A stretch of 64,000 nucleotides of DNA from Candidatus Woesearchaeota archaeon (GTDB lineage Archaea; Nanobdellota; Nanobdellia; Pacearchaeales; GW2011-AR1): positions 4,658-68,657 of the forward strand of contig CAYFFD010000001.1 in the NCBI GenBank assembly GCA_964342415.1. Direction: 5' to 3'. The stretch's first letter is position 1, and each line of letters opens with the position of its first letter. Positions 742-35,532 of the stretch are shown in pieces. A program made the position numbers and the translations under genes. The notes under the pieces were generated by a model that was not told the DNA's origin, made no database searches, and saw only the letters and a list, made by a program, of their open reading frames with translations.

Positions 742-1170
742 ATGAGAAGATCTTTACTTTCTTTGACAGTTGCATCTGGACTTGCTTTAGGGGCTTGTGG
801 GAGTACTGGCGATAGAGATTTTGGATATGCTGCTAAAGAAACGCTTGGAGCACCTGTTAGTTTTTTGACTGGCGCAGCTAGGCAAGCTGAAAAAAATCCT
901 GCTCAAGCAATATATGATTTAACTGGCCGAGCTGTAAGTGAAGCTGGTAGAGTTATTAATGGTGTTGCTCATATGGCAACAGGACACAAATATGAAGCAG
1001 AATTTGGAAGTGTAAAAATACATCCTATGGCAGATAATGATGTAGTTAAAGCAGCAGGATGGGGAGCAGTATTTGCACCAGTAATACCATTTTTGTCGTA
1101 TGTTGAAAGCACTTTATTATTTGGGACAATAGGTGCTGGCTCTGAATTCTTGAAAAGAAGAAGTGAATAA
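742..1170 (+). CDS. hypothetical lipoprotein
   Basis: N-terminus MRRSLLSLTVASGLALGACGS is lipobox-like. The protein is Gly/Ala-rich and the DNA is GC-richer than its surroundings. Confidence 0.4.
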   Translation: MRRSLLSLTVASGLALGACGSTGDRDFGYAAKETLGAPVSFLTGAARQAEKNPAQAIYDLTGRAVSEAGRVINGVAHMATGHKYEAEFGSVKIHPMADNDVVKAAGWGAVFAPVIPFLSYVESTLLFGTIGAGSEFLKRRSE

Positions 1171-1202
1171 ATAATTTTTATTTTTTGAAATTTTTTTAGT
1201 TA

Positions 1203-1913
1203 TTAACCTAACCATCTGATTTTTCCAGGGCGCGGTTCAAATATAACTCCTTCTTCAAGAAGTTTTTGAATTTCAGAATTTATAATTTCCGAAGATCCAC
1301 CTAAATCTGCAATTAGTTTTTCTGTGTCCACTCCCTCTTGACTTTCAGAATTTTTTATCATTTCAGTAATTTTATCTCTCAAACTTTTTTCTACAGAAGT
1401 TTTTTCTTCTTCAACTTGAACAGGCTTAGGGACAACACTAACATTAGAAGAAAAATCTTGGCTTGCCTCAGAACCAGTTAAATCCTCTTGAGATTTTTCA
1501 AGTTCAATCTTTCTTAAAACAAGATATTTTGGATCTTGCTCTTTTACAATTTCTGGAGAAATATAAATTTCATTGTTGAAATATCTTACATTCCCTATAA
1601 CAATTACTGTCTGTCCATGAGTTACGTTTTTTATTTTTTCAACTTCATCTCCAAAAGATTTCAACTTTATTTGTCCGGTTCCATCATCTAATGTCAAAAA
1701 AGTATAACTACTTTCTCCACTGCTTTCGAATTTATCGACAATACTCCCAATAACATTAACTCTCACGACTTTTTTATTTCTTAATTCCAAAAAACCAAAT
1801 CTCTCTCCCCTCATCACAGGACTTCCGCTTAAAATATCTCCGATTCTGAATTTGTATGCAATATTTCTTTTGAATTGTGGTTCAGGCATTTTATATTTTT
1901 TGAACATAACCAC
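1203..1913 (-). CDS. OB-fold nucleic-acid-binding protein with C-terminal winged helix (RPA32/Stn1-like), coupled to mcm
   Basis: The central segment VNVIGSIVDKFES...YTFLTLDDGTGQIKLKSFGDE...TVIVIGNVRYFNNEIYISPE fits an OB-fold (tRNA_anti-codon type). The C-terminus KLIADLGGSSEIINSEIQKLLEEGVIFEPRPGKIRW looks like a winged helix. Its start overlaps the mcm stop by 23 nt. Confidence 0.45.
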   Translation of the reverse strand: MVMFKKYKMPEPQFKRNIAYKFRIGDILSGSPVMRGERFGFLELRNKKVVRVNVIGSIVDKFESSGESSYTFLTLDDGTGQIKLKSFGDEVEKIKNVTHGQTVIVIGNVRYFNNEIYISPEIVKEQDPKYLVLRKIELEKSQEDLTGSEASQDFSSNVSVVPKPVQVEEEKTSVEKSLRDKITEMIKNSESQEGVDTEKLIADLGGSSEIINSEIQKLLEEGVIFEPRPGKIRWLG

Positions 1914-3909
1914 TTCTTGGTTCGTAGATTATGCTATGTTTAATTAATTCACCTATTGCATCTTCTATTTCCACTTTTGTGAATTTTCCGTCAAGTTCTT
2001 TTTCAATTTCTTCAATAGGAATTAGTTTTCCAAGACGACTTTCAAGTTGAGTTATCAAATCTCTCACTATAAATGCTTTGCTTCTTTTCGACGTTGTCAT
2101 TCCTGAAATTTTGTCTATATCAAAAGTTTTCGTTTCATGATCATAACCAACTTGCATCAGATAATATTTGATTATATCAATTGCCCTTCTTGCATCTTCA
2201 CGAGTCACAGTATTGTTAAGACGTAATTTTGCAGAAGCCTCCGACATTCTTATTAATGCCTCTAATTGCCTGGCCGAAATCGGAATCGGTCTTAACGCGC
2301 TTTCAGAACTTACAGGACGATTCCTCAAGTCAATATAAAATTTTTCAATTTCTTCAACTGCCTCTTCACTCAATGTAGGAACAATTCTTTGCCTTGCATA
2401 AGCTACATACTTCCTAAAAAGATCTCTATCAATAACCATCTCCTTCCCTTCTTTTTTGTGTTCTTGTAAAACATGTCTTGCAATTTTCATATCCTTTTCC
2501 CTATCAGGAATATCTCTTAAAGTAAAAATTACATCAAACCTATTTATTAGTGTAGGAGGTAAATCAATTTGCTGTGCAACTGATTGATGAGGATCAAACC
2601 TTCCGAGCTTTGGATTTGCAGCAGCCAAAACGCTTGTCTCAGCTCTAAGAGTTGCTTGAACATTTGCTTTTGAAATCGTAACTGTCTGTTGTTCCATTGC
2701 TTCATGCATTGAACTCCTATCAGAGGGATCCATTTTTTCAAGTTCATCTATGCAAATTAAACCTTTATTTGACAAGACCATTGCTCCAGCTTCCAAGCTC
2801 CACCCTCTCAAGTATTCATCTCTTATAACAGAAGCAGTTAAACCAGCTCCCGAAGCCGACTTTCCAACAACATATCTTCCTTTTGGTGAAATCTCTGCCA
2901 TGAAATTTAAAGTCACTGATTTTGCAACTCCTGGATCTCCTATCAATAAAATATGGATATCTCCCCTTCTTTTTTGTCCATCAATATGAGTCTTTTTTAC
3001 TCCACTAAACAACTGTAAAACAAGAGACTTTTTTATTTCTTCATAACCCCAAACACTTGGAGTAATGCTTCCTGCAAATTTCTCAAAAATCTCAGGATCT
3101 TTGGAAAGTTCTAAAATCTGTTTTTCATCTTCTTCATTTATATCAAGCTCTTCAAAAGTTTCCTCTAATGGAATTATATTATTTACTTCAATTGCAAGCT
3201 CAAATCTTGTTGATAATCCTCCTGTGCTTAAGGGAACAGGAACTTCTTTCAAGACCCCTATGACTTTGATTTTACTTCCAGGAGTTGTCTTCTCTTCCAT
3301 TCTCGGCTCGACCAAATCCTCCTTAACAAAAACATTAATTCTTTTTGATTGTTCTCCTCCTGAAAGAGATTCAGGAGCTTCCTCAACTACAAGTCTTTGT
3401 GTATCAACCATCTCCTTGCTAAGTAATTTAAAATTTCCCTTTCTTCCGCAACTACATCTAGAGGGTTCTCGGAATTTCTTTTCAATTTGTAACATAGAAA
3501 TAATGGTTCCACATGAAGGGCATTCAAACTTTGCATTTACCACTTGCGGACGGACATCGCTTGCCTGACGAATAATTCCATCAACAACAATAAGCTCACC
3601 CAAATGCCTTGAGCGAATACTCCTTATCTTTAATTGCAAACTCTCCGGAAGACTATAAAGTCTCACTCTTACATTATTGACTAATCCAGATTCCTCAATT
3701 GCTAATTCCATCAAACTCAAAGCTTCCTCTGGATTCGAAATAATCTCCTCTGAAAGTTTTGTTGAAAATTCCGAGAGCTTCAAAAAATCAACATGAATTA
3801 CATTATTACCTTTTCTAATTGATTCTCCAAGTTCTCTTTTATTAAAATCGAAGAAATTTTTTGCCTCAATAACTAAATCCTCTTTCGATTTCAACTCTGC
3901 CATGAGCAA
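1891..3909 (-). CDS. mcm: MCM replicative helicase
   Basis: It has a C4 zinc finger (CPSCG...CSCG), Walker A (GDPGVAKS) and Walker B (CIDELEKM), and an arginine-finger region. Length is 672 aa. Confidence 0.92.
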   Translation of the reverse strand: MLMAELKSKEDLVIEAKNFFDFNKRELGESIRKGNNVIHVDFLKLSEFSTKLSEEIISNPEEALSLMELAIEESGLVNNVRVRLYSLPESLQLKIRSIRSRHLGELIVVDGIIRQASDVRPQVVNAKFECPSCGTIISMLQIEKKFREPSRCSCGRKGNFKLLSKEMVDTQRLVVEEAPESLSGGEQSKRINVFVKEDLVEPRMEEKTTPGSKIKVIGVLKEVPVPLSTGGLSTRFELAIEVNNIIPLEETFEELDINEEDEKQILELSKDPEIFEKFAGSITPSVWGYEEIKKSLVLQLFSGVKKTHIDGQKRRGDIHILLIGDPGVAKSVTLNFMAEISPKGRYVVGKSASGAGLTASVIRDEYLRGWSLEAGAMVLSNKGLICIDELEKMDPSDRSSMHEAMEQQTVTISKANVQATLRAETSVLAAANPKLGRFDPHQSVAQQIDLPPTLINRFDVIFTLRDIPDREKDMKIARHVLQEHKKEGKEMVIDRDLFRKYVAYARQRIVPTLSEEAVEEIEKFYIDLRNRPVSSESALRPIPISARQLEALIRMSEASAKLRLNNTVTREDARRAIDIIKYYLMQVGYDHETKTFDIDKISGMTTSKRSKAFIVRDLITQLESRLGKLIPIEEIEKELDGKFTKVEIEDAIGELIKHSIIYEPRSGYVQKI

Positions 3910-3991
3910 GGAAAAATGGTTTTCTTTTTATAATTTGTTGTTAAAAATAATATATTATGAATTATTCTCAAGGGGTGAAAGTGATTTTAAA

Positions 3992-4729
3992 TTAATAACA
4001 ACCTCTGTTTATAACTGTGGCTGTGCAGGTGTGTCCACCAGCACAAGGTGCACATCCTAATACAGGCCCGCAAACTTGTTCATAATCAACAGTTGTGCAC
4101 TCTTGCTTAATTACACATCCATAAGCATAAATACATGTATCTACCTCAATATTTCCAAACGGATGAGATGGTGTTGTACATGTATTACCGCACTCTCCAC
4201 TCTGACTGTCGCAAGACTTTTGTACTGTTGCAGTCCAATCATTATATGATGTCCATCCACTAGGACAACTAGCTTGAGCAAATTTACACATGAAATTTCC
4301 TGCTCCATCAGGCTCTACAATACCTCCTGCACCAGTACAATCTTGAGATGTATGAGCTCCATTAACTAAAGGAATAATATCTCCACTAGATACACTTGAA
4401 GCACTAACCCCTTTCCATTCGGCACTATCACAAAATTCCATAACTTTATCTGCTGAATTATATCTTAAAGTTCCTTCATCACCTAAACCACATGGAGAAA
4501 TTGTTCCTAATTTTAAACCACCTACAACATCCACATTTCCTTTAAAAACAACATCTCCTTCAACGCCTGCGCTTAAATCAAGTTCTTTGGCACTATGTCC
4601 AAAGGTTGAAGGTGTAGAAGTTCCGAAGGCAAAAACACCAACAGCAATTAGAAGAAAAACTGCAAATGTAATAAAAGTATAAATTGTTCTATTGTTCAAA
4701 GTTATGTTGAACTTCAACTCTTTTTTCAT
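3992..4729 (-). CDS. cysteine-rich secreted/anchored protein
   Basis: There is an N-terminal TM/signal anchor (IYTFITFAVFLLIAVGVFAFG). The rest of the protein carries more than 20 Cys, which suggests an extracellular location. Confidence 0.4.
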   Translation of the reverse strand: MKKELKFNITLNNRTIYTFITFAVFLLIAVGVFAFGTSTPSTFGHSAKELDLSAGVEGDVVFKGNVDVVGGLKLGTISPCGLGDEGTLRYNSADKVMEFCDSAEWKGVSASSVSSGDIIPLVNGAHTSQDCTGAGGIVEPDGAGNFMCKFAQASCPSGWTSYNDWTATVQKSCDSQSGECGNTCTTPSHPFGNIEVDTCIYAYGCVIKQECTTVDYEQVCGPVLGCAPCAGGHTCTATVINRGCY

Positions 4730-9301: not shown

Positions 9302-10729
9302 ATGGGACCAAAATCAAGGATTTTAACTAATTCATCTAGATTTTTCCAAAGTAAAAGGATATTTGTATTTGTAGTTGTCTTATTTTTATTGCCATTGGTT
9401 TCTGCAATAAATCTAAACGTAGAACAACGCGATTCAAATGAGATAATGATTCAGGAAATAAATCATCCTGCGACTTTCAATTTCAAAATAACAAATCTTG
9501 GAAGATCAGACAATTTTCAATTCTACAATTTATTAGGCTTTAGCATGTCTCCAAAAGGAAGTGTTCATTTCTCTCAAGGAGAGGCAAAAAGCGTAGATTT
9601 AATGGTTTACCCAAGAGAAAATTTTGATTTCAAAGGATTTTACACTTTCATGTATTTTATAAGAGGAGATAATGGCTCAGAAATTTCACAGGAGCTAAAA
9701 ATAAAGATAATCGATTTGAAAGATGTTTTTGAAATTGGCTCTGGTGAGATAAATCCAGAATCAAACTCATTAGAAATTTATCTAGAGAATAAAGAAAATT
9801 TAAACCTTGAAGAAGTTAATGTAAAATTTGATTCTGTTTTTTTTAAATTTGAAGAAACTTTTTCAATAGAAGCAAATGAAAGAAAAAGTTTTGATGTTGA
9901 ATTAAAAAATGAAGACTTCAAAAAAATAATTGCTGGATTTTATACTTTAAATGCCGAAGTAAATGTTAAGGATGAAAAAATTGATTTAGAGGGAACTATA
10001 AAGTTTGTTGAAAAAGACATCTTAAGAACTACAAAGAAAAATTATGGATTTTTAATAAGCACTCAGATAATAGAAAAAGAAAATGAGGGAAATGTTTTAA
10101 CACCTTCTGAAACAGTGATAAGGAAAAACATTTTCTCGAGATTGTTTACAACCCTGAGCCCTCTTCCTGATTTTGTTGAGAGACAGGGTGTTGATGTTTA
10201 CTATACATGGAGCAATGAAATAAAGCCTGGAGAAAAAGTGGAAATTTCTGTGAGAACCAACTGGTTTTTCCCGTTTTTAATAATTCTTTTTATTATTGTA
10301 ATAGTTATTTTAGCAAAGCAATATTCAAAGACAAACTTGGTTTTAAGAAAAAGGGTTTCTTTTGTAAAAACTAAAGGTGGAGAATTTGCATTAAAAATTT
10401 CTATTTTTGTTAACGCAAAAAAACATGTTGAAAAAATAAGTATCATCGACAGGATTCCTCATTTAGTAAAGGTTTATGAAAAATTTGGAGTAGAAAGACC
10501 AAAAAGAGTAAATGAAAAAACCAAAAGAATTGAATGGGAATTTGATGAATTGGAAGAAGGCGAAACTCGTGTGTTAAGTTATATTGTTTATTCAAAAATA
10601 GGAATTATCGGAAGATTCGCTCTTCCAAAAGCAACAGCGATTTATGAAAAAGATGGAAAGATTCATGAAACGGAATCAAACAAGGCTTTCTTTGTTGCGG
10701 AACAGAGTGGAAAAGAAGCTGAAGAATAA
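9302..10729 (+). CDS. membrane-anchored extracellular protein
   Basis: It has a signal peptide and a central TM segment (WFFPFLIILFIIVIVILA). This is the DUF11-like 'surface protein with late TM' architecture. Confidence 0.45.
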   Translation: MGPKSRILTNSSRFFQSKRIFVFVVVLFLLPLVSAINLNVEQRDSNEIMIQEINHPATFNFKITNLGRSDNFQFYNLLGFSMSPKGSVHFSQGEAKSVDLMVYPRENFDFKGFYTFMYFIRGDNGSEISQELKIKIIDLKDVFEIGSGEINPESNSLEIYLENKENLNLEEVNVKFDSVFFKFEETFSIEANERKSFDVELKNEDFKKIIAGFYTLNAEVNVKDEKIDLEGTIKFVEKDILRTTKKNYGFLISTQIIEKENEGNVLTPSETVIRKNIFSRLFTTLSPLPDFVERQGVDVYYTWSNEIKPGEKVEISVRTNWFFPFLIILFIIVIVILAKQYSKTNLVLRKRVSFVKTKGGEFALKISIFVNAKKHVEKISIIDRIPHLVKVYEKFGVERPKRVNEKTKRIEWEFDELEEGETRVLSYIVYSKIGIIGRFALPKATAIYEKDGKIHETESNKAFFVAEQSGKEAEE

Positions 10730-17203: not shown

Positions 17204-20200
17204 ATGGAAAGGGGAAAGTCACTTGCATTATTGAGCATTATATCTTTAATATTATTTTCAAGCTTTATTTTTGCGACACATGTTATTACAACTTCCAGCG
17301 GGGCTTCTTCTTATAGTGTTAATGAGGATGTGAGTTTTAATTATAACATAACTGTAAATAACACTGATTTAGGACAGACAGCAAATATAACTCAAGTCGA
17401 CATAACTCTTCCAAGCTCATTCTCTTTTTTAGCAAATTCAAATGACACGGATTCTCCTAGCACAATATTCACAAATACAAGCGCAGTATTAAGCTGGACA
17501 AACTCAACAAACTTTGTTGTTAATGAAAGTGATGTTAGGAATTTCTGGTTTAATGCAACCGCTTCCACACCTGGAAATTTCAATTTAACTATTACTACAA
17601 CAAATTCAACAGGCAGTTTTTCTTCAAATATCTCTGTTACTATCAATGACACAACAATTCCTTCATCAATAAGTTTTGTTAGTCCTACTTCAAGTAATAA
17701 TTCAAACACTTCACAATCTTACATTCCGATAAATATAACTGCTATAGATAATGGAGTCATCAGCACAATCATAATAAAATTATTCAACTCAACAAACGAC
17801 CAAATAAATTCTTCGAGCAACTCTTCATCACCTTCCCAATTCCTTGCAAACTTTACAGGATTAAGTGATGGAGTTTATTATTTTAACTCAACAGTAAATG
17901 ATACTTTTGGAAATTCTAATTCAACAAGCACAAGAAAAATAACTCTTGACGCATTAGCTCCAAACGTTTTTGGATTCAACAATCCTGTAAGCAATGCAAA
18001 TTTGTCAGGCACGCAAGTTATTAATGCAACAGCAAATGATACAACCCTAACAATAAGCAGTGTGTTTTTCAATATTACAAATTCCAGTGGGCAAATTAGT
18101 TTTTTAGCCACTTCTCAAACAGGGGACAATTGGAACGCAACACTAAACACTTCAGCTTTAACAGATGGAAACTATAACATAACTGTTTACGCAAATGACA
18201 CTGTTGGAAATTTGAATAATTCTGAAAAAATCAGTGTAACCATAGACAACACTTTTCCAACATTAACTTCCTTGTCAGTTTCAGGTGTTTTCAATAATGG
18301 AACAATTAATATCTCGTCGCCGGCAAATCAAGACGGATTGTATGACAACTTAACAATTGACTTGGCATACTCTGAAACAGTGAGCGCCAGCATATTTGTA
18401 ATAAATAGCACAGGAAGTGTTGTCAAGACAATATATTCAATCTCTTCTGTGCAGAATCCTACTGCAAAGGGTTGGGACGGAACCCTAACAGGAGGTGCTA
18501 ATGCATCTGACGGGTTTTACACAATAAATACAACATTTACAGACGAGGCAAACAACACAAACACAACACAGGTTGCAAGCGTCTATGTTGACAACACTGC
18601 TCCTTCTGTCACAATCACTTCACCAAAATCAAATGAGAATTTCACAAAAGATCAATCAGTGCTTTTACTCGGAGCTGTCAGTGATTTAAATGTCGCACAG
18701 TCACTTGTCTTCAATGTATCAAATTCAACTTTCTCTTCAACCTATACAACTGAGAAAAATTTATGGTTCAATAATTCATTTGACATTACAAAACTTGCAG
18801 ATGGTTTTTACAATGTGACTGCAATTGCAAACGATACTTTAGGGAATTTAAACAAAACTGAAAAAGTTCTGATTTTAGTTGATAGCACAGATCCAACAAT
18901 CACAAATTTGAACATAGCGCCTAGCACAATTAACAATGACAATAATGTAACATTAAACGCCACAATCAATGACTCATTTTCAGGAATCTCGAGAGTATGG
19001 GTTTCTTCAAACTTTACAGGAAGTTTTGTGAATTACACAATTTCTGGAAGTGGTCAGAATTATTCTTTCTTGATTAAAAGCGGGAATTTCTCAAATCAAG
19101 AAGTTGTAGGATATCAATGGTTTACGAATGATACTTTAGGAAATGAAGTTAATAGTTCTTTACAAAAATTCAACATCAGCAACAGAGTTCCTGTTTTTGT
19201 AAGCACAGCTATAACAAATGCAACAGAAGATAAAGTTTATACTTATCAAGTCAATACAACAGATAGTGACGGAGATTCTTTGACATATTCATTGACAACT
19301 TCTCCAACAGGAATGGGAATTACTTCAAGTACAGGATTGATTGTTTGGCTTCCTGACAACAGCCAAGTTGGAAACAGCACTGTGTCTGTTTTGGTAAATG
19401 ACAGCAAAGGTGGAACTGCAACGCAGACATTTGCAGTGAATGTGACAAATGCAAATGATATTCCAACAACACCTTCGCTAACCTCTCCATCAAATCAATC
19501 AACTTTGTTAAAGAATTCAACAACATTAAAATGGAATGTATCAACAGATGATGACAATAATACAATAACTTATTATGTATTTTTCTCAAATGAAACAAGC
19601 CCTTCTATTAATGCTACAACAACAAACCCTAATTTAACAGTAAGTGGTCTTGAAGACAACGAAACATATTATTGGAATGTAATCGCAAGCGATGGGATTG
19701 GAAATTCAAGTACAACAGCAACATTGCAATTTAATATTAGTCTTAATAATGCTCCAAATATAACTGCCCACGCACCTTTGCTAAATAAAACAATCTCAGA
19801 AAATCAGACATTGATGTTTAATGCAACAATCTTCGACGTAGATGGAGACAACATAATTTACAATTGGACAATTGACAACGTTCAAAACTCAAGTGCAACA
19901 ACTTCAACAAGCAATGAAACAATATTTTTTAACTACACGCCTTCATTTAGTGATTCGGGAACACATACAATTAAGCTATCTATCAAAGATACTAACAACA
20001 ACTCTGGGACAGCAAAGTCATGGTTAGTAACAGTTTCGAACGACAACAGAGATCCAACACTTAACACAATAATCGATTACTCTGTTAATGAAGATTCAAC
20101 ACTTACATTTGACATAACAGGTTCTGATCCTGATGAAGGAGACACATTAACATATGATTCAAATCTTAGTTCTATTTCTATAACAAAAGTAAATAACACT

Positions 20201-21961
20201 TTAGCTAGAGTTTCGTGGACTCCTACAAACAGCGATGTCGGCGCTAATGCAGTTAATTTCACGTTGAGTGATGGAACTAAAACAGTTTCACAAGTTGCAA
20301 CAATTACAATAGTTAATACAAACGACGCTCCAACGATAACAAGCAGTTCTCCTTCATCTGACCCAATAGTAAAAAACAAAACTGCCCAAACATTTTCTGT
20401 TAGTACTAGCGACGCTGATAGTGATTCATTAAGTATAACATGGTATGTCAATGGAAGCTCAAATGGAACTGGAAGCAGTTTTAGTTTAACAAAAACAATT
20501 TCAGAAAACTCAGAGGTATTCAATATCACTGTTTTTGTGTCAGATGGAACAGAAACAGATTCAAAAGAATGGAAATTAATTGTGACAAGCATCCCTGTTA
20601 CAAGTTCATTCACAGGAAGTGGGACAACAGATTTCTCAACAATCCCTGACTTAAGTTCCGCAACAGATATTGTTCTCGCGGAAAGCGACGGGAAAATTGA
20701 CTTTGGAAATGAAATTCTAGACTTGAGCAACGTTCTTGACTTAGACAATAATATCAAAATTCTTGAAGGAATCGTAGCTATAAATTCTTCAAGATATCCT
20801 CAGTTAAACAAACCAGCGACAATAACTTTAACAGGATTATCTTATAGCACAGCTCCAAAGGTTTTTTCCAATAGCGATTTCACAACAAGCTCAAGCGAAA
20901 TAACAAGTGAATGCAGTTTCTGTAAAATTACTAATTTCACTAAAGCTCCGACAAGCAGTGGAACAGTTATTTTTGAAGTGGAACATTTCAGCTCTTTCAA
21001 GGTTGCAGCAAGTGGAAATAAATTAGACTTGAATTCATTTGACGACTTAGATTTATGTGAAGAAGGAATTATTGGAGATTTAGAATTAGAAATTAAAGAC
21101 CCAGATGAAAGAGATGACTTCAAAATAGGAGACCTAATAAAAATAAAAGTGGATGTTGAAAACAGTGCTGACGAAGACCAAGACGTTATTGTTGAGGCGT
21201 CATTATACAACATTGATGAAGATGATGAAATGGAAAATGATGAAAGCAATGACGAAGAAATAAATGAAGATGATAACGAAATATTTAATCTTGAAATCGA
21301 AGTTCCTGATGACTTTGATGATGGCGACGATTATTTGATATATGTAAAGGCTTACGAAGAGAAGAATGAAGATGAACAATGTGATGAGAAGATAGTTGAA
21401 ATAAAATTAGAAAGAGAAAAACATGATGTTATAATTAAAGATATGGAGATTACACCTTTAACAATTCGTTCTGGAAAAAACCTCAACGTGTTTGTTGATA
21501 TAGAAAACATTGGAAGCAGTGATGAAGATGTTTATGTAACTTTGAAAAATGATGCTCTTGAAATTTTTGAAAAAAGCGAAACTTTTGAACTCGAAGAGCA
21601 AGGTGAAGATGATTTCTTTACTCAAGGATTTTTTGTAAGAATTCCTGACAACACATTAGAGGGAGAATATTCACTTATAATAGAGGCAGTGTTTGATGGT
21701 GAAGAAGACACAAGGACAGAAACAATTTCTGTCTTAAGATCATTGTCTTTAATCAGTACAGATTTTGACGGAGAAATTATTAACCTCAAATATGGAGAAA
21801 AGACAGAAACAATAAAAATAGAAAAAGAAGGTTATTTGAAAAAAGTCAGTTCATCGTCAAAAGAGAAAGATTATTTATTTGTCGTCGCGCTTGCACTTGG
21901 AATATTGATTCTTCTTCTATTAATAGCCGTTATACTAAGTTCAAGAAGAATATTCAGATAA
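17204..21961 (+). CDS. giant surface protein with repeated beta-sandwich domains, many N-glycosylation sequons, acidic linker and C-terminal TM anchor
   Basis: It has a signal peptide and dozens of N-x-S/T sites. Domains of ~100 aa repeat. An acidic block (EDDEMENDESNDEEINEDDNE) is present. The C-terminus has a TM followed by RRIFR. Length is 1585 aa. Confidence 0.6.
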   Translation: MERGKSLALLSIISLILFSSFIFATHVITTSSGASSYSVNEDVSFNYNITVNNTDLGQTANITQVDITLPSSFSFLANSNDTDSPSTIFTNTSAVLSWTNSTNFVVNESDVRNFWFNATASTPGNFNLTITTTNSTGSFSSNISVTINDTTIPSSISFVSPTSSNNSNTSQSYIPINITAIDNGVISTIIIKLFNSTNDQINSSSNSSSPSQFLANFTGLSDGVYYFNSTVNDTFGNSNSTSTRKITLDALAPNVFGFNNPVSNANLSGTQVINATANDTTLTISSVFFNITNSSGQISFLATSQTGDNWNATLNTSALTDGNYNITVYANDTVGNLNNSEKISVTIDNTFPTLTSLSVSGVFNNGTINISSPANQDGLYDNLTIDLAYSETVSASIFVINSTGSVVKTIYSISSVQNPTAKGWDGTLTGGANASDGFYTINTTFTDEANNTNTTQVASVYVDNTAPSVTITSPKSNENFTKDQSVLLLGAVSDLNVAQSLVFNVSNSTFSSTYTTEKNLWFNNSFDITKLADGFYNVTAIANDTLGNLNKTEKVLILVDSTDPTITNLNIAPSTINNDNNVTLNATINDSFSGISRVWVSSNFTGSFVNYTISGSGQNYSFLIKSGNFSNQEVVGYQWFTNDTLGNEVNSSLQKFNISNRVPVFVSTAITNATEDKVYTYQVNTTDSDGDSLTYSLTTSPTGMGITSSTGLIVWLPDNSQVGNSTVSVLVNDSKGGTATQTFAVNVTNANDIPTTPSLTSPSNQSTLLKNSTTLKWNVSTDDDNNTITYYVFFSNETSPSINATTTNPNLTVSGLEDNETYYWNVIASDGIGNSSTTATLQFNISLNNAPNITAHAPLLNKTISENQTLMFNATIFDVDGDNIIYNWTIDNVQNSSATTSTSNETIFFNYTPSFSDSGTHTIKLSIKDTNNNSGTAKSWLVTVSNDNRDPTLNTIIDYSVNEDSTLTFDITGSDPDEGDTLTYDSNLSSISITKVNNTLARVSWTPTNSDVGANAVNFTLSDGTKTVSQVATITIVNTNDAPTITSSSPSSDPIVKNKTAQTFSVSTSDADSDSLSITWYVNGSSNGTGSSFSLTKTISENSEVFNITVFVSDGTETDSKEWKLIVTSIPVTSSFTGSGTTDFSTIPDLSSATDIVLAESDGKIDFGNEILDLSNVLDLDNNIKILEGIVAINSSRYPQLNKPATITLTGLSYSTAPKVFSNSDFTTSSSEITSECSFCKITNFTKAPTSSGTVIFEVEHFSSFKVAASGNKLDLNSFDDLDLCEEGIIGDLELEIKDPDERDDFKIGDLIKIKVDVENSADEDQDVIVEASLYNIDEDDEMENDESNDEEINEDDNEIFNLEIEVPDDFDDGDDYLIYVKAYEEKNEDEQCDEKIVEIKLEREKHDVIIKDMEITPLTIRSGKNLNVFVDIENIGSSDEDVYVTLKNDALEIFEKSETFELEEQGEDDFFTQGFFVRIPDNTLEGEYSLIIEAVFDGEEDTRTETISVLRSLSLISTDFDGEIINLKYGEKTETIKIEKEGYLKKVSSSSKEKDYLFVVALALGILILLLLIAVILSSRRIFR

Positions 21962-28682: not shown

Positions 28683-29384
28683 ATGAAAAAAGAGGCTTGG
28701 AAAAATCAATTTTTCTTTCTAAGAGATCGCAGAGGAATAAGCGTCATGATTGGTTATGTTCTTTTGGTAACAATTACAATAATAATAAGCACAATAATGT
28801 ATCAATGGCTTAACACTTACATTCCAACAGAGTCTTTGGATTGTCCTGATGGTGTTTCGGTTTTTGTAGAAGAGACAAGATACAACTGCACAGAAAAAAT
28901 TCTTGACTTCACGATAAAAAACAACGGAAGGTTTGACATTGCAGGTTACTTCATACACGGAACGAATTCCTCAAGCCAAGGACTTGCAACAATAGCATTA
29001 TCTCAGTACAGTAATCTGAGTGCAGAAGGAGAAATCATCTTTGATGCAGACAATAATTTTCTAAAGCCAAACAATAAATTAGACAACATATTCGATCTTA
29101 GCAATACTTCTTTCGGGCAAATTCAATCGCTTGAAATAATTCCAATAAGATATCAGCCAGTCAACAACAAAAATAGAATTGTCAGTTGCAGTGATTCAAA
29201 AATAAGAGAAGTAATTAGCTGTTATACAGGAAGTGTTCCATGTATCCCTGAAGATGTCTCTGTGACTTGTGGAACATGGGTTTGTGGTTCTAAAACAAAT
29301 AATTGTGGTGATGCGGTATCATGCCTACCAGGATGTACTTTACCGGAAACCTGTAATGCAAACGGGCAATGTACACAAGGGTAA
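28683..29384 (+). CDS. pilin-like protein with class III signal and Cys-rich C-terminus
   Basis: The N-terminus is ...LRDRRG followed by ISVMIGYVLLVTITIIISTIMY. The C-terminus is CGTWVCGSKTNNCGDAVSCLPGCTLPETCNANGQC. Confidence 0.55.
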   Translation: MKKEAWKNQFFFLRDRRGISVMIGYVLLVTITIIISTIMYQWLNTYIPTESLDCPDGVSVFVEETRYNCTEKILDFTIKNNGRFDIAGYFIHGTNSSSQGLATIALSQYSNLSAEGEIIFDADNNFLKPNNKLDNIFDLSNTSFGQIQSLEIIPIRYQPVNNKNRIVSCSDSKIREVISCYTGSVPCIPEDVSVTCGTWVCGSKTNNCGDAVSCLPGCTLPETCNANGQCTQG

Positions 29385-29842
29385 CACAAATTGATTTCTC
29401 AGGCTTTGAATCAGGAACACAAGGATGGACTTTTGGTGGATCAGATGGTGACAGAAGCAATAAAAGAAGTAATGTCGATGATTCAGGAGTTTTAGGAGGA
29501 ACATGGTCAGCACACTTACAAGATGATTCATCAACTTCAGAATTCTTAAAAAATTTTGACTTTGCCGGAGGCTATAGCCATGTTAACATATCATTTGGTT
29601 ATTATCCTAAAAGTATTGATAATAATGAGTATGTTCAACTTCTTTGCGATGGTGTTGAAGTTTGGAGGTTTACAAAGGGTGCTCATGGACAAAATGCATG
29701 GTTTTCTACAAAAGTTAAAGTCGAGATAACAGATTGTAATTTTGATTCTTCAGTTGAAATAAAGTTTGAAGGAAATCCAGGATTGTCAGGAAATTCAGAT
29801 GACATTTGGGTGGATGGTATAAATATAACAGGAATATTATAA
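29369..29842 (+). CDS. hypothetical protein, possibly a C-terminal extension of the upstream pilin-like gene
   Basis: It overlaps the upstream stop by 16 nt in the +2 frame and has no signal of its own. It is rich in G, S, D and W. Confidence 0.3.
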   Translation: MYTRVTQIDFSGFESGTQGWTFGGSDGDRSNKRSNVDDSGVLGGTWSAHLQDDSSTSEFLKNFDFAGGYSHVNISFGYYPKSIDNNEYVQLLCDGVEVWRFTKGAHGQNAWFSTKVKVEITDCNFDSSVEIKFEGNPGLSGNSDDIWVDGINITGIL

Positions 29843-29901
29843 TTAAAAATTATAACGTTAAAATTTATAAACTTAAAATATTTAAATGAAAAAACATAAC
29901 A

Positions 29902-30441
29902 ATGAAGATGATTAATTTTAATCTCCTTTCAAAAAACAATAAAGTAAATCAAAGATTTCCATTTGTCCGAATTTTTCCAAATTCAAACAAAGGGGTTTCA
30001 CCCATGATTGCAACTGTCCTTCTAATAGGAATGGTTGTTGTTATTGCCTTAATTATTTTTTTATGGTTCAAAGGATTCTCACAAGAAGCAATAGTAAAAT
30101 TCGACAAAAATGTAGAACTCGTGTGTGATGAAGTCAAGTTTGAAGCAAGCTATTCAGGAGATACGTTGGCTGTATCAAATATTGGGAATGTTCCTGTTTA
30201 TAACATCAAAGTAAAAATCTTGGAAAATGGTAATTTTGAAACAAAAGATTTAAATGACCTATCTTCAAATTGGAAGAACGCTGGATTAAATCCAGGAAGG
30301 GTTTTTTCAGATGACATAAGCTCCAGCATTGGAAGTGCAGACAGCGTAACTTTGACTCCTGTTTTAGTAGGAAGCTCTGAAAAAGGAGAAAGAACTTTTA
30401 CATGCAATGAAGCAAGATATGGTCACACAATTAATTTATAA
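29902..30441 (+). CDS. archaeal type IV pilin (class III signal peptide)
   Basis: It has NKG followed by VSPMIATVLLIGMVVVIALIIF. This is the conserved archaeal adhesion-pilin (PilA-type) H-domain. Confidence 0.6.
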   Translation: MKMINFNLLSKNNKVNQRFPFVRIFPNSNKGVSPMIATVLLIGMVVVIALIIFLWFKGFSQEAIVKFDKNVELVCDEVKFEASYSGDTLAVSNIGNVPVYNIKVKILENGNFETKDLNDLSSNWKNAGLNPGRVFSDDISSSIGSADSVTLTPVLVGSSEKGERTFTCNEARYGHTINL

Positions 30442-30952
30442 AGTGATTTTTAAAAAAAACAAAAAAGGGGTTTCTGGGATTATTGCAACGGTAATCATGA
30501 TTGGGTTAGTTATTGCAATCGCTGCGATTTTATGGAGTGTTGTAAATAATTTAATAGGAGAACAAGTTAGTTCAAGCGAATCCTGTTTTGGAAATTTCGG
30601 AAAAGTCACATTAAACAAGCAATACGTATGTAAAGATTCTATTGCAAACGAAATTCAATTTGCAATAAATATAGGGGACATAGATGTTGATAGTGCCTTA
30701 GTCTCTGTTTCAGGGCAATCAGGAACAAAAAGTTTCGAAATAAAAAATAGCACAACATATAGTTATGTCAAAATGTTTGGTGGAAGTTATGGAGGAGCAT
30801 TGCAGCTTCCTGGAGAAAATGCTGGATTAACTTATGTTGTTGGTTTAACGACTCTTGGGATCACAGACGCAACATCAATAAAAATCGCTCCAGTGTTAAA
30901 TGGAAACCAATGCGAAGTTTCTGATTCTATAACATCAATTGGTAGTTGCTGA
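30407..30952 (+). CDS. archaeal type IV pilin (class III signal peptide)
   Basis: It has KKG followed by VSGIIATVIMIGLVIAIAAIL. Confidence 0.6.
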   Translation: MKQDMVTQLIYKVIFKKNKKGVSGIIATVIMIGLVIAIAAILWSVVNNLIGEQVSSSESCFGNFGKVTLNKQYVCKDSIANEIQFAINIGDIDVDSALVSVSGQSGTKSFEIKNSTTYSYVKMFGGSYGGALQLPGENAGLTYVVGLTTLGITDATSIKIAPVLNGNQCEVSDSITSIGSC

Positions 30953-30993
30953 TTTTTCTTTAACATTAACTATTTAAATTTAATCTTATTTAA

Positions 30994-31515
30994 TTGTTCA
31001 TGAAAAAAAGAGGGCAGATTTGGATAGAGGTAGTTATTTACACCTTAATTGCATTGAGTTTAATCGGGGCTGTTCTCGCTTTTATAACTCCAAAGATAGG
31101 GGAAATTCAGGACAAAGCAATTATCGAACAAAGCATTACGATGATGCAAAACATAGACACAGTTATTTCATCAGTTGCTATTGGAGGTCCTGGAAATAAA
31201 AGAATAATTGACTTAGGAATAAAAAAAGGAGCACTAACAATAGATGCACAAAAAGATGAGTTTGTTTTTGAAATGGAAAGTGAATATGAATATAGTCAAC
31301 TAGGAGAGGAAATAAACATTGGCGATATAATTGCGCTGACAGAAGAAATAGGAAGTTTAAACAAAATAACACTAAAGATGAATTATAGTGAATATGATTT
31401 AACCTACAATGGAAAAAATGAAACAAAATTAATCACAAAAGCTTCAACACCTTACAAATTGTCAATTGAAAACAAAGGGGGAACAAAGACAATAATCGAA
31501 ATTATTGTTAGTTAA
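30994..31515 (+). CDS. pilin-like protein (class III signal, RGQ type)
   Basis: It has MFMKKRGQ followed by IWIEVVIYTLIALSLIGAVLAF. Confidence 0.5.
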   Translation: MFMKKRGQIWIEVVIYTLIALSLIGAVLAFITPKIGEIQDKAIIEQSITMMQNIDTVISSVAIGGPGNKRIIDLGIKKGALTIDAQKDEFVFEMESEYEYSQLGEEINIGDIIALTEEIGSLNKITLKMNYSEYDLTYNGKNETKLITKASTPYKLSIENKGGTKTIIEIIVS

Positions 31516-31545
31516 TTTTAAAAGAATTAATTGTATTAAATAAAA

Positions 31546-33108
31546 ATGGAAGTTATCAAAAAAAAGAGGGGAATACAGGATTATCCAAAAGTCTTGATAA
31601 ATTTTTCTCCAAAAATTCCTCCTCTAAAAAAACTCTCTGACAAAACAAAAGTCAACATAAGGTATTCATTGATTCATCCTTTCGCATTTGCACATATTTA
31701 TTGGGATCCAAAAATTTACGAATTAGTATATGAAGTGGAAGAGCCATATTTAAATGAAACAGAAAAAAAACACAGGGAAGAAATAGTCTCTGCAATGGAA
31801 AATATGATTAATCTTGGAGATATTGTAGATAAAAAAAGAGAAGTTGTCTTAGAATATATTGACAGAATGTTCAAAATTTTAGTGATAGAGCTTGGAATAG
31901 AACTCTCATATCAAAGCTACAAAAAAATATTTTATTATCTTAGTAGAGATTTTATTGGTTTCAACAAAATAGAACCCTTGCTAAGAGATTATTTTGTTGA
32001 AGATATAGAATGCAACGGACTTGATACTCCTATTTATGTTGTGCATCGGGCTTATCGAAACATGAAAACAAATATTAAATTCAATGACTTGGACAAGCTT
32101 TCAAATTTTGTTGAGAAACTTGCTCAAAAAACTGGAAAATATGTTTCCTATGCAAATCCAATTCTCGATGGAAGCCTACCTGATGGAAGCAGAGTTAATG
32201 CAACTTACACTAAAGACATAACAAGCAAGGGTCCAACATTCACGATAAGAAAATTTACAAAAACTCCATGGACCCCTCCTCAGCTTATAAAATTCAATAC
32301 ATTAAGCCCTGAGATGGTTGCTTATTTGTGGATATTAATTGAGCATAAAATGAATATTTTACTCACAGGAGGAACTTCTTCCGGAAAAACAACTTTGCTT
32401 AATGCAATCGCGTTTTTCATTCCTCCAGAGGCAAGAGTTGTTAGTATTGAAGACACTCGTGAATTAAACCTTCCAAGAGAGAACTGGCTTCCAAGCGTTG
32501 CAAGAAATTCAACAGGTGTTGGAAACATCGGAGAAATTGATTTATTCACTTTGCTAAGAAGCTCTTTCAGGCAGAATCCTGATTATGTAATTGTCGGAGA
32601 AGTCAGGGGAAAAGAAGCGTCTGTTTTATTTCAAGGAATGGCTTCAGGACATTCTTCACTAAGCACAATGCACGCCGACTCCGTGGACACTGTAATAAAA
32701 AGACTTGAAACTCCTCCTATCGAACTTTCACCAACATTGTTGAATGTTCTTGACTGTGTTTGCATCATGACTCATGCAATTGTAAAAAAGCAAGAGACAA
32801 GAAAATTAAAAGAAATTGTGGAAATAATAAACGTAAATCCAAATGGAATCGCCTTAACAAACACACCTTTTTTATGGAATCCTTCAGATGATAGCTTTTA
32901 CTTTAAAAAAAACAGCAAGATATTTGAAAAAATTTCAAGAAGAAGCGGATTAAAAATTGAAGAACTTGAATTAGAATTCAGAAAAAGAGCGCAATTGATT
33001 CATAAAATATCTCAAGAGAAAATTTTCGAATTTGAAAAATTTCAGGGAATAGTAAATGAATATTACAAAAAACCTGAAGAAGTTCTAAAAAAATTTGGAA
33101 TTATGTAA
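31546..33108 (+). CDS. type IV pilus/secretion ATPase (PilB/FlaI/TadA, VirB11 superfamily)
   Basis: It has Walker A LLTGGTSSGKTTLLNA and Walker B/Asp box IVGEVRGKEA. The His box is present. Length is 520 aa. Confidence 0.85.
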   Translation: MEVIKKKRGIQDYPKVLINFSPKIPPLKKLSDKTKVNIRYSLIHPFAFAHIYWDPKIYELVYEVEEPYLNETEKKHREEIVSAMENMINLGDIVDKKREVVLEYIDRMFKILVIELGIELSYQSYKKIFYYLSRDFIGFNKIEPLLRDYFVEDIECNGLDTPIYVVHRAYRNMKTNIKFNDLDKLSNFVEKLAQKTGKYVSYANPILDGSLPDGSRVNATYTKDITSKGPTFTIRKFTKTPWTPPQLIKFNTLSPEMVAYLWILIEHKMNILLTGGTSSGKTTLLNAIAFFIPPEARVVSIEDTRELNLPRENWLPSVARNSTGVGNIGEIDLFTLLRSSFRQNPDYVIVGEVRGKEASVLFQGMASGHSSLSTMHADSVDTVIKRLETPPIELSPTLLNVLDCVCIMTHAIVKKQETRKLKEIVEIINVNPNGIALTNTPFLWNPSDDSFYFKKNSKIFEKISRRSGLKIEELELEFRKRAQLIHKISQEKIFEFEKFQGIVNEYYKKPEEVLKKFGIM

Positions 33109-33144
33109 GCAAATATTTAATAATACAAAATCCTTTTTCATGAC

Positions 33145-33330
33145 ATGAAAGATGGTGATAAATTTTTAACAAAAGAAGAGATTTCTTTTCTTAATCAACT
33201 TATAAAATCTCTCGAAGAATCAAACAAAAAGCTTGAAGAGTATTATATAAAAAAAGATTACAAGAATTTCAAGAATGTTAAAAAATTCATGTTGGAAATT
33301 CAAAAAAAAATTTCTAAAGCGATAAAATGA
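33145..33330 (+). CDS. small coiled-coil protein
   Basis: It is 61 aa and translationally coupled to the ATPase and platform genes. Confidence 0.3.
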   Translation: MKDGDKFLTKEEISFLNQLIKSLEESNKKLEEYYIKKDYKNFKNVKKFMLEIQKKISKAIK

Positions 33331-34700
33331 TTCATGAAGGAAAATTTTTTCAAGAGTTAAAAAATAGTATTTCAAGAGAAGTGGAAATAATTAAAGAAAT
33401 GAATTCTTTTTTTAATAATTTAGAAAGCCATGATCAAGAAGAAAAGGATATGGTTTTTTCACAAACAAGTTCTTTAAAAAAATTATTAAAAAAGGAGAAT
33501 GATAATATTTTGATAGCATTGAATAAAATATCTCTTGTAAAGCCACTCCAGAATTCACAAATTCATTCTAAATTGCCAAGAAGCCAAATCAGAACATTAT
33601 TACTTAAAGACCAAAGTAAAACCTCTAATGAAAATTTTTTAATGCCTCAAACTAAAAAGAAAAAAAATTTCATTGAAAAAATTTCTCAAAAAAGATCTCT
33701 TTACAAAAAATTTTCCTTGAAAAAATTTGAAAAAGATACTCTTAAAAGAATTGGGAAAAAAGAAAAAGAAATCGTTGGCAAAAAAACAAAAAAGCCAAGC
33801 ACATATGTTAGTTTAGCTAATAGGCTTTTTTCAAACGTTTCATCTTCCTTAATTGAAAAAGGAATGTTCAAAAACTTAAACGAGAATCTCTCAAGAACAA
33901 ATAGGGAATTTCTTCTTAAAGGTTATGTCTCGATAATTCTTTTTACAACACTACTCTCTGTAATTGCGGGAATTTTTACTTTCACGTTTTTCCTATTTTT
34001 CAATATCCAAATTGCCTTTCCTTTCATAACAATGACTAGTGATTTATTTATGACAAGATTCTTGAAAGTGTTCTGGATTTTGTTTGCAGTTCCAATTGCG
34101 ACTTTCTCATTTGCATATTTTTATCCTGCACTCGAAAAAGACTCTCTTGAAAAAAGAATTAATCAGGAACTTCCTTTTGCAACAATAAACATGGCAGCTA
34201 TTTCGGGCTCAATGATTAATCCAACAGAAATATTCAGTATAATTGTCTCGACAAAAGAATATCCAATCCTTGAAAAAGAATTTATAAAAATAATAAACGG
34301 CATGAATGTCCTTGGATATGATTTGATTACCGTATTAAGAAACAGTGCCTTCCACAGCCCGAGTAAAAAACTCGCTGATTTGCTAAATGGAATTGCGACC
34401 ACTGTAAACTCTGGCGGAGATCTAGGAAAATTCTTTGATGAAAGAGCGAAGAACCTTCTTTTCGAATATGATCTTGAAAAAGAAAAAAGCACAAGAGCTG
34501 CAGAAACCTTCATGGATATCTACATCAGCGTTGTTATCGCAACCCCTATGATTTTGATGCTTTTGTTAATCATGATGCAAATCAGTGGTTTAGGGATATC
34601 CTTAAGCACAGGAATGATTACCTTAATAATGGTTTTAGGAGTCACTGCAATAAACATTGTCTTCTTATCATTTTTGCACATAAAACAATCAAACGAATAA
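33327..34700 (+). CDS. pilus platform membrane protein, TadC/PilC/FlaJ-like (T2SSF domain), N-terminal half with K-rich extension
   Basis: It has a ~170-aa charged N-terminus followed by TM helices. The layout of cytoplasmic domain plus TM pairs is typical of a T2SSF domain. Confidence 0.55.
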   Translation: MIHEGKFFQELKNSISREVEIIKEMNSFFNNLESHDQEEKDMVFSQTSSLKKLLKKENDNILIALNKISLVKPLQNSQIHSKLPRSQIRTLLLKDQSKTSNENFLMPQTKKKKNFIEKISQKRSLYKKFSLKKFEKDTLKRIGKKEKEIVGKKTKKPSTYVSLANRLFSNVSSSLIEKGMFKNLNENLSRTNREFLLKGYVSIILFTTLLSVIAGIFTFTFFLFFNIQIAFPFITMTSDLFMTRFLKVFWILFAVPIATFSFAYFYPALEKDSLEKRINQELPFATINMAAISGSMINPTEIFSIIVSTKEYPILEKEFIKIINGMNVLGYDLITVLRNSAFHSPSKKLADLLNGIATTVNSGGDLGKFFDERAKNLLFEYDLEKEKSTRAAETFMDIYISVVIATPMILMLLLIMMQISGLGISLSTGMITLIMVLGVTAINIVFLSFLHIKQSNE

Positions 34701-34701
34701 A

Positions 34702-35532
34702 ATGGAAATTAAAAAAACTCATTGGATTGGAATAGTTGTATCAGGATTGGTTATGCTATCTTCATTGTTTTTCATAGAAACAAGGTGGTTTTTCATTTTT
34801 ATAGGAACAGGGATTATAATTGGAGTTCTTCCTTTTGTGTTCTCAACAATACGCGAAACAAAGGTTGAAAATGAAAAAGAAGAAATGTTCCTTGAATTTG
34901 CAAGAAATTTGGCGGAAAGCGGAAAAACAGGAATTCCAATAAGCAAAAGTATAATCAATGTCAAGGACAGGGCTTATGGAGTTTTAAGCAGGCATATTAA
35001 AAAATTAGCAAACCAAATTTATTTAGGAATTCCTTTGGGAAGTGCATTAAAAGTATTTTCAAGAGATGTAAATAACAAAACAATTTCTAGAGCAATAACT
35101 CTTATAGGACAAGCAGAAAAATCAGGAGGAGATATTGCAGAAATTCTAGAATCTGTTGCAGGAGCCGTAAACACTTCTGATAAGTTAAAGAAAGAAAGAA
35201 AAGCAGTAATATCCACGTTAGTTGTTCAAGGATATATAATTTTTGTTATCTTTATAGTAATAATTCTTGTTTTGCAATTCAAGATAATTCCAATGATTGA
35301 AGGAGTAGGAAGCTTAGGACTAGGAGAAACAGCAGGAACAGTTCCTAGCGATGCAGGTGGTACTGATGTGTCAAGTGTTTTTTTCTATTTGCTTATAATC
35401 CAAGGACTTTTTAGCGGTCTAACAATAGGAAAGCTAGCAGAGAAAAACTTCAAGGCAGGAATAAAACACTCATTCACTTTGATGTTCCTTGCATTCATAG
35501 TTTCTTCAGCAGCCAATATCTTTTTTGGTTAA
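34702..35532 (+). CDS. pilus platform membrane protein, second T2SSF-like domain (TadB/TadC-like)
   Basis: It starts 2 nt after the previous stop. It has TM-loop-TM topology with a cytoplasmic helical domain (EFARNLAESGKTGIPISKSI...). Confidence 0.5.
   Translation: MEIKKTHWIGIVVSGLVMLSSLFFIETRWFFIFIGTGIIIGVLPFVFSTIRETKVENEKEEMFLEFARNLAESGKTGIPISKSIINVKDRAYGVLSRHIKKLANQIYLGIPLGSALKVFSRDVNNKTISRAITLIGQAEKSGGDIAEILESVAGAVNTSDKLKKERKAVISTLVVQGYIIFVIFIVIILVLQFKIIPMIEGVGSLGLGETAGTVPSDAGGTDVSSVFFYLLIIQGLFSGLTIGKLAEKNFKAGIKHSFTLMFLAFIVSSAANIFFG

Follow-up and report, generated by a model that had tools for sequence, protein, structure and literature searches.

The window analysed here is a stretch of 64,000 nt from Candidatus Woesearchaeota archaeon (assembly GCA_964342415.1, contig CAYFFD010000001.1, positions 4,658-68,657 of the forward strand), and we describe in it a pair of adjacent minus-strand genes, mcm and rpa2, the second of which appears from its sequence to encode the Rpa2 (RPA32) subunit of archaeal replication protein A. 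All coordinates are those of the window. Its G+C content is ~31%, and the genomes closest to it are metagenome-assembled and carry the labels Pacearchaeota, Woesearchaeota or Nanoarchaeota; the host is a low-GC, small-genome DPANN archaeon of the Pacearchaeota/Woesearchaeota type. The upstream gene of the pair, mcm (1891-3903), was identified through Pfam, NCBIfam and gene callers as encoding the replicative helicase. Its longest open reading frame (ORF) has 672 codons (1891-3909) and begins at TTG 3909; the start is more probably ATG 3903, which the gene callers use and which gives 670 aa. The product matches Pfam MCM_N, MCM_OB (1e-23), the MCM P-loop (E=2e-88), MCM_lid (5e-26) and, weakly, MCM_WH_arc, and scores 688 bits against NCBIfam minchrom_main_MCM. 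With an N-terminal domain, an OB fold with Zn finger, an AAA+ P-loop, a lid and a C-terminal winged helix (WH), it reads as a canonical archaeal MCM. It has no intein; in several relatives (11 loci) mcm is ~3.3 kb long and, where annotated, has its P-loop domain interrupted by an intein that contains a LAGLIDADG domain.

Directly downstream of mcm and on the same strand, as an earlier note on this DNA had observed, lies an ORF of 236 codons (1203-1913). That note had also reported a 23-nt overlap with mcm, which we find to be an artefact of taking the longest ORF, opened at the GTG that comes first behind the preceding stop codon. When 22 homologs of the product were aligned (alignment A1), the Met at codon 9 (ATG 1889-1887) proved to be a nearly invariant start, reading 'MPEEQFKRN...'; where an N-terminal extension occurs, in a few homologs, its letters 'VMFKKY/IYKKY' are those of the conserved MCM C-terminus ('GYVQKI*') translated in a different frame. 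For these reasons the starts GTG 1913 and ATG 1907 were rejected in favor of ATG 1889 and rpa2 was placed at 1203-1889, 228 aa plus stop; from this start the two genes do not overlap. The junction (1887-1893) reads TAA-A-ATG, in which the MCM stop (1893-1891) and the rpa2 start are separated by one spacer base, as near as two genes can lie without overlapping. Because this leaves no space for a promoter, we infer co-transcription and coupling of the reinitiation type, and the window rpa2 is most probably transcribed together with mcm from a TATA-like element 5′ of mcm. A candidate for this element is AAATTATAAAAA (3925-3936, minus strand), a putative transcription factor B recognition element (BRE)/TATA promoter of the mcm-rpa2 unit that ends ~22 nt 5′ of ATG 3903 and resembles the 'AAAAACTTATAAA' motif found ~22-37 nt 5′ of rpa2 in relatives. 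At the other end of the unit, the A/T-rich 3′ flank (1150-1202, minus strand) has the oligo-T runs TTATTTATT and TTCTTCTTTT on the transcribed strand and may serve as an archaeal terminator ahead of the convergent gene (742-1170). A hairpin-type terminator scan returned nothing at 1150-1202, but such a scan is of the bacterial sigma-70/hairpin type and is uninformative for an archaeon.

The rpa2 product contains one OB fold followed by a C-terminal WH, the architecture that the earlier note had proposed, with both Pfam matches above their gathering cut-offs and an AlphaFold2 model in agreement (residue numbers for domains follow the 236-codon numbering of the longest ORF). The OB fold (residues 31-125; 1539-1823, minus strand) matches PF01336 over residues 52-119 with 36.1 bits against a cut-off of 27 and, in alignment with Pyrococcus abyssi Rpa2 (PabRpa2), is equivalent to Rpa2 OB-3 and eukaryotic DBD-D. 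The WH (1206-1400, minus strand) matches PF08784 RPA_C over residues 169-225 with 24.1 bits against 22.6 and consists of three helices and a beta-hairpin wing ending 'GVIFEPRPGKIRWLG'. In the AlphaFold2 model, the mean predicted local distance difference test (pLDDT) score is 77.6, with ~90 in the barrel strands and 82-88 in the WH; the model shows a beta-barrel at 31-125, a helix at 129-146, disorder at 146-171, and three helices with a beta-hairpin at 172-234. Before the barrel lies a conserved N-terminal segment, 'MPEPQFKRNIAYKFRIGDILSG' (1824-1889, minus strand), whose PabRpa2 counterpart is 'KRMPATRLYIKDILEG' and in which F14, K15, R16, A19, K21 and I24 are invariant in A1. After the barrel, the helix 'PKYLVLRKIELEK...' (1476-1529, minus strand), recognized from the model and from conservation, aligns with PabRpa2 'PNMWILHRYETL' and is equivalent to the RPA trimerisation helix; P128, Y130, L131, R134, K135 and E137 are invariant in A1, and R/E/L remain so in a second alignment of 40 Rpa2-family members that are 28-73% identical to the window protein (alignment A2, from which the family profile was built). 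The positions most conserved across the family include 'KRxxAxxxxIxDIL' in the N-terminal segment and 'W/Y-L-x-x-R-K/Y-x-E-L' in the post-OB helix, both of which are common to PabRpa2. Helix and WH are joined by a Ser/Glu-rich linker (1401-1475, minus strand) that is disordered in the model (pLDDT <50 at 146-171), indel-rich in A1 and variable in length among homologs. PabRpa2 trimerises with Rpa1 and Rpa3 through a three-helix bundle (PMC10122647), and by analogy the post-OB helix of the window protein may form an oligomerisation interface.

Sequence searches place the protein within one family. With the single sequence as query, phmmer against the PDB returned only Rpa2/Rfa2 chains, among them P. 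abyssi RPA32 (E=5e-9, residues 15-185). The family profile aligns end to end, over its positions 1-226, with residues 1-268 of PabRpa2 (E=5.5e-33) and also matches yeast Rfa2 (7e-12), human STN1 (3e-9) and human RPA32 (1e-5), as well as the nuclear magnetic resonance structure of the isolated PabRpa2 WH (9f27_A, 2.5e-9), the human RPA32C structures 1dpu and 4ou0 and, weakly, PabRpa1 and PabRpa3. The structural comparison with RPA32, Stn1 and RPA14 that the earlier note had called for, made with Foldseek on the predicted model against the PDB, placed human STN1 first (6w6w_C, E=1.7e-10), P. abyssi RPA32 second (8aaj_B, 3.8e-10), human RPA32 next (9pd4_O, 9mj5_B), and then many Stn1-Ten1 and RPA14/32 entries. 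The RPA32/Stn1-like architecture is thus borne out by profile and structure alike. An unrelated OB protein such as the anticodon-binding domain of an aminoacyl-tRNA synthetase, lacking a WH, had been named as the outcome that would speak against it, and was not what we found: Lys-tRNA synthetase appears from rank 37, covering the OB fold alone with query-normalised TM-scores of 0.27-0.32, and is outranked by RPA32 and STN1 chains, while the WH is present. A synthetase-type OB protein was accordingly rejected, as were three other identities. An SSB (a protein binding single-stranded DNA) of the bacterial or crenarchaeal type, with an OB fold and a disordered acidic tail, does not fit a folded WH C-terminus, and no SSB chain occurs among the PDB sequence matches. 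GINS23 has only the gene position in common, with no GINS family among the Pfam and NCBIfam matches. STN1 proper has two tandem WH domains, while the window protein has a single WH (172-234) and STN1 aligns over the OB fold and first WH only.

The family to which the protein belongs is large: 1954 homologs were found at E<=1e-3, and the clusters of 50% identity have 1551 representatives. These numbers show rpa2 to be a real gene. Database names vary: members are called 'RPA family protein' by JGI, which we take to be the product name of COG3390, hypothetical or 'OB-fold nucleic acid binding domain-containing protein' by NCBI, and uncharacterised (K09746) by KEGG, while some are misnamed 'DNA polymerase III alpha subunit' or 'RecG-like helicase'. 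The definition given for COG3390 is that of an OB protein with distant kinship to RPA32 of Thermococcales (PMC2643942). Judged from these sequence relationships, the rpa2 product is an ortholog of archaeal Rpa2/RPA32, and we place it in COG3390; the likeness goes beyond a mere sharing of fold. The Rpa2/RPA32 type was already known and structurally solved in Thermococcales, and so the window protein brings no new architecture to the Archaea; it is a divergent DPANN member of a known and structurally characterised family.

What does appear to be new is the gene context. Conservation of the MCM pairing in related genomes, which the earlier note had suggested checking, was assessed in three samples. 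Among 80 loci from GTDB species-representative genomes, 78 had enough upstream sequence to be tested and all 78 have mcm upstream of rpa2 on the same strand. Seven testable deeper lineages, with Rpa2 28-38% identical and MCM 47-59% identical to those of the window, keep the order TBP-MCM-Rpa2(-aIF2beta) in six cases; the seventh (our lineage P0211) has no mcm at this place and still has aIF2beta downstream. In 69 testable metagenome loci with a distant Rpa2 subfamily, mcm is upstream in 56, with a spacing of <=16 nt in 38 of these, including seven overlaps. The pairing is thus conserved. It forms part of a longer block, seen at loci L005-L084 of our collection of related loci, that runs DNA ligase > TBP > MCM > Rpa2 > (membrane protein, opposite strand) > aIF2beta > DUF424 > aIF1A > KH protein > nitroreductase. 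Thus the linkage in the earlier note's 'dedicated MCM-linked' partner is conserved, while the word 'dedicated' is not borne out, as the pair sits in a longer block together with translation genes. In the window itself the flanks are remodelled and the pair is intact: a Cys-rich secreted protein (3992-4729) stands upstream of mcm in place of TBP, and downstream of rpa2 lineage-specific small genes (742-1170 and 3-656) separate it from aIF2beta, which lies beyond the window edge (loci L001-L004). At L001 (a 14.8-kb contig of ERZ907987) we observed two MCM-Rpa2 pairs ~8 kb apart, with Rpa2 proteins of 217 and 234 aa and similar downstream genes; this is probably a chimeric assembly of two strains, and could be a duplication.

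A conserved neighborhood may reflect descent rather than function. On this explanation rpa2 would be an ordinary RPA subunit gene within a slowly rearranging block of information-processing genes, and its adjacency to mcm would have no functional meaning. The conservation of the whole order ligase-TBP-MCM-Rpa2-aIF2beta-DUF424-aIF1A-KH is consistent with this, as is the spacing between mcm and rpa2, which ranges from -8 to ~4000 nt across the samples. In the window clade (n=78) there is one overlap (-1), and the gap is 1-20 nt at 5 loci, 21-100 nt at 31, 101-300 nt at 17 and >300 nt at 24. The longer gaps often hold inserted small genes, and unrelated genes are inserted in 24 of the 78 loci; one recurrent insertion, present on the same strand in at least eight genomes, encodes a ~175-aa P-loop protein ('MKIALIGTHGTGKTT...'). 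On the other hand, MCM-Rpa2 is the most invariant junction of the block (78 of 78, against 69 of 80 loci for aIF2beta on the same strand and about half for TBP), the pair survives at 47-59% MCM identity, and in the distant subfamily 38 of the 56 pairs are separated by <=16 nt or overlap, which is typical of operons under selection. We regard inherited synteny without functional meaning as a somewhat unlikely explanation.

The expression of the pair appears to differ between the window and many of its relatives. Where the mcm-rpa2 spacer is 30-70 nt, 'CAtAAAAACTTATAAA' or 'AAATCTTTAAAAA' is found ~22-37 nt before the rpa2 ATG, so that many relatives probably transcribe rpa2 from a promoter of its own, which again agrees with the inherited-synteny explanation. 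We observed this BRE/TATA-like motif 5′ of rpa2 at nine named loci and at others, and its end, ~21-24 nt ahead of the ATG, points to mRNAs in this clade that are leaderless or have very short leaders. The one-base junction would then have been compacted in the lineage of the window. The translational coupling to mcm proposed in the earlier note may thus hold in part: the one-base junction of the window is consistent with it, whereas tight spacing is not universal and many relatives have 30-100 nt together with a TATA-like promoter of their own.

The WH of Rpa2 (1206-1400) and the C-terminal WH of MCM (1894-2100), both encoded on the minus strand, are similar across loci L005-L177 and have a '(I/V)(Y/F)EPRxG' wing motif. 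This likeness could be paralogy or merely the generic similarity of WH domains. It bears on another rival explanation, in which the rpa2 product is an accessory factor specific to MCM, occupies the Gins23 slot between mcm and aIF2beta, and docks on or competes with MCM through its related WH to regulate helicase loading or activity. The Rpa2-family profile does match the WH at the C-terminus of neighboring MCMs (E values of 1e-3 to 1e-8, from a small database) and of solved archaeal MCM structures (8x7t_D, 4.8e-4; 2ma3_A, 6e-4; 2m45_A, 4e-3), and 'IYEPRxG' is common to the wings of Rpa2 and MCM. In the arrangement MCM-Gins23-aIF2beta known from Thermococcales (PMC2643942), the gene in the middle is replaced here by rpa2, and the pair is unbroken even where its flanks are rearranged, both in the window and at one locus that reads aIF2beta...MCM-Rpa2. 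However, the similarity to MCM is confined to the WH and is far weaker than the full-length orthology to Rpa2, the protein is not similar to GINS, and WH domains often resemble one another. Moreover, some lineages without mcm keep TBP-Rpa2-aIF2beta (metagenome locus L172) or Rpa2-aIF2beta (P0211). Altogether, an MCM-specific accessory role is very improbable.

We favor, with a confidence somewhat better than even, the explanation that this is the gene, in a Nanoarchaeota-type DPANN archaeon, for the Rpa2 (RPA32) subunit of archaeal replication protein A and that it is expressed with mcm. The OB fold, bundle helix, acidic linker and WH are all kept, and on this ground we assign the window protein the roles of PabRpa2, by analogy and with reasonable though not high confidence. 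The single OB fold would bind single-stranded DNA (ssDNA), by homology with the P. abyssi protein, which binds it through OB-3, and the helix after the barrel would oligomerise in a helix bundle with partner OB subunits, either Rpa1/Rpa3-type proteins encoded elsewhere or possibly Rpa2 itself. The PabRpa2 WH binds PriS and the DP2 subunit of PolD and stimulates primase (PMC11686378); the flexible acidic linker of the window protein may likewise tether its WH as a bait that recruits primase and PolD to RPA-coated DNA. Transcription with mcm from the TATA-like element upstream of mcm, followed by translation of rpa2 through termination and reinitiation, would tie the output of an ssDNA-binding protein to that of the helicase that generates ssDNA.

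Several observations weigh against this reading. Neither Rpa1 nor Rpa3 was found in the 64-kb window (Pfam scans of 52 ORFs, and a CxxC scan of the ORFs without Pfam match) or within 5-6 kb on either side of rpa2 at ~170 related loci, the stretches that the search covered, and the formation of a heterotrimer is thereby unsupported here. An hmmsearch with the family profile through all ORFs of ~1.5 Mb of related loci returned only Rpa2 orthologs and MCM WH matches, and phmmer with an S. solfataricus SSB query found nothing. The window protein is also 40 aa shorter than PabRpa2, and the stretch corresponding to the PabRpa2 helix-turn-helix is predicted to be disordered, so that this element is seemingly absent. 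As to expression with mcm, in most genomes of the window clade the spacer measures 21-100 nt (31 of 78) or more and rpa2 is preceded by a conserved TATA-like motif, and coupled expression is thus not the conserved state. Finally, because the MCM-Rpa2 pair shares a long syntenic block with TBP, aIF2beta, DUF424 and aIF1A, adjacency alone is no proof of a specific functional link.

The main rival builds on the first two of these points. The rpa2 product would be a minimal stand-alone SSB, the only RPA-type protein of the cell, which acts as a monomer or homo-oligomer without Rpa1 and Rpa3, coats the strand extruded by MCM, and brings in primase or polymerase through its WH. The missing partners and the apparent loss of the helix-turn-helix, which in PabRpa2 contacts Rpa3, fit such a protein, and PabRpa2 by itself can bind ssDNA (PMC10122647). 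A possibly comparable case is Nanoarchaeum equitans, whose only reported ssb-like gene encodes a monomeric 243-aa protein with one OB fold (PMC4431734). The tight linkage of rpa2 to mcm and not to rpa1, unlike the arrangement in Thermococcales/Methanococcales and the euryarchaeal COG3390-RPA41 tandems (PMC2643942, PMC3914693), points the same way. Nevertheless, a search that spanned the window and flanks does not establish that Rpa1 and Rpa3 are absent; the trimerisation-bundle helix, by ranking with the best-conserved parts of the family, speaks for a protein partner that is obligate; and one OB fold binds few nucleotides, with low affinity. We consider a stand-alone SSB unlikely. A broader proposal, which we put forward as speculation and hold to be quite improbable as a whole, is that in Woesearchaeales/Pacearchaeales-type Nanoarchaeota the Rpa2 homolog is the sole RPA/SSB-type protein, a minimal RPA without Rpa1 and Rpa3 in a helicase-coupled module, that its WH is a paralog of the MCM C-terminal WH, and that an ancient mcm-rpa2(-aIF2beta) unit is the DPANN counterpart of mcm-gins23(-aIF2beta).

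Under the favored reading, as the Rpa2 subunit of an archaeal RPA, the protein itself adds a divergent DPANN member and no new principle, the archaeal Rpa2 structure having been solved and recruitment of primase and PolD by its WH being known. It allows a clean annotation of a family now called 'hypothetical', listed as uncharacterized under K09746, or wrongly named 'Pol III alpha' or 'RecG-like'. What is new is that in hundreds of Nanoarchaeota-type genomes rpa2 comes immediately after mcm, often with an overlap or a gap of a few bases, instead of standing with rpa1 and rpa3. In the papers that we searched, no report of MCM-Rpa2 linkage in DPANN was found, so that the conserved mcm-rpa2 context is apparently unreported. 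Together with the ligase-TBP-MCM-Rpa2-aIF2beta block, an extension of the replication-translation clusters that had been described in 2008, it gives a hint of MCM-RPA co-regulation or contact in minimal replisomes and a starting point for asking if a simplified RPA serves the reduced genomes of DPANN. Its significance would rise if the clade lacks Rpa1 and Rpa3, or if a physical contact between MCM and Rpa2 is shown.

Other features of the window were noted in passing. The genes for the 'origin-associated proteins' OapB (43136-43534) and OapC (43846-44229) flank an unannotated ORF of 82 codons (43535-43783), with no Orc1/Cdc6 seen near them, and the cumulative GC skew peaks at ~44-46 kb, coinciding with a switch in gene orientation. 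An origin in the gap between OapB and OapC was considered and rejected, as the gap holds the 82-codon ORF and only weak repeats. The minus strand also carries Rad50-like (50771-52819) and Mre11-like (53160-54335) genes, which are separated by an ORF of 94 codons. Positions 28683-36719 hold a type IV pilus/archaellum-like cluster with a T2SSE ATPase (31546-33108), a pair of T2SSF membrane proteins (33327-35532), and a series of small proteins that have hydrophobic segments at the N-terminus and no Pfam match. Surface-type proteins that are very large or secreted, and that can be assigned to families hardly or not at all, are encoded at 17204-21961 (1585 aa), 39794-42451 (885 aa, with a PKD domain) and 9302-10729 (475 aa); such proteins are typical of DPANN episymbionts.

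The closest known system is RPA32 of P. abyssi and P. furiosus (PDB 8AAJ, 8OEJ, 9F26, 9F27), which has the same order of elements as the window protein: the N-terminal 'KR..A....I.DIL', OB-3, a helix, an acidic linker and the WH. Identity to PabRpa2 is only ~23%, the lengths are 228 aa against 268 aa, and the window protein apparently lacks the helix-turn-helix with which PabRpa2 continues beyond the trimerisation helix and enlarges the Rpa2-Rpa3 contacts. The genes differ in their neighbors as well. Thermococcales rpa2 belongs to an rpa1-rpa3-rpa2 operon (RPA41/14/32) and in other euryarchaea COG3390 genes stand beside RPA41 homologs (PMC2643942; also PMC3914693), whereas clustering with rpa1/rpa3 or an RPA41-type gene was not observed here, where the neighbors are mcm upstream and usually aIF2beta downstream. 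The same holds for the COG3390 haloarchaeal RPA-associated proteins (RPAP/Rpe): the euryarchaeal COG3390 gene stands in tandem with an RPA41-type gene, while the window gene follows mcm with no rpa1 nearby. Such differences in neighbors are features of gene context and do not define a protein family. As to gene order, Berthon et al. 2008 reported the cluster MCM-Gins23-aIF2beta from Thermococcales and, from two methanogens, MCM-aIF2beta (PMC2643942); the flanks of the Thermococcales cluster are equal to those found here, but its middle gene encodes a GINS subunit, which is not homologous to the OB-WH Rpa2. Eukaryotic RPA32 and yeast Rfa2 have in common with the window protein an OB fold (DBD-D) and a C-terminal WH, from which the latter differs in lacking the N-terminal phosphorylation domain, in its identity of 15-19% and in its prokaryotic origin. 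STN1 of the CST complex also has an OB fold followed by WH, but its two WH domains are in tandem and it is a telomeric protein with the partners CTC1 and TEN1, while the window protein has one WH and comes from a cell without telomeres. The NeqSSB-like protein (NEQ199) of Nanoarchaeum equitans, from the same phylum, is similar in size (243 aa) and in having one OB fold, though NeqSSB is said to carry a conserved Trp (W108) in its OB fold that the Rpa2 family described here does not have.

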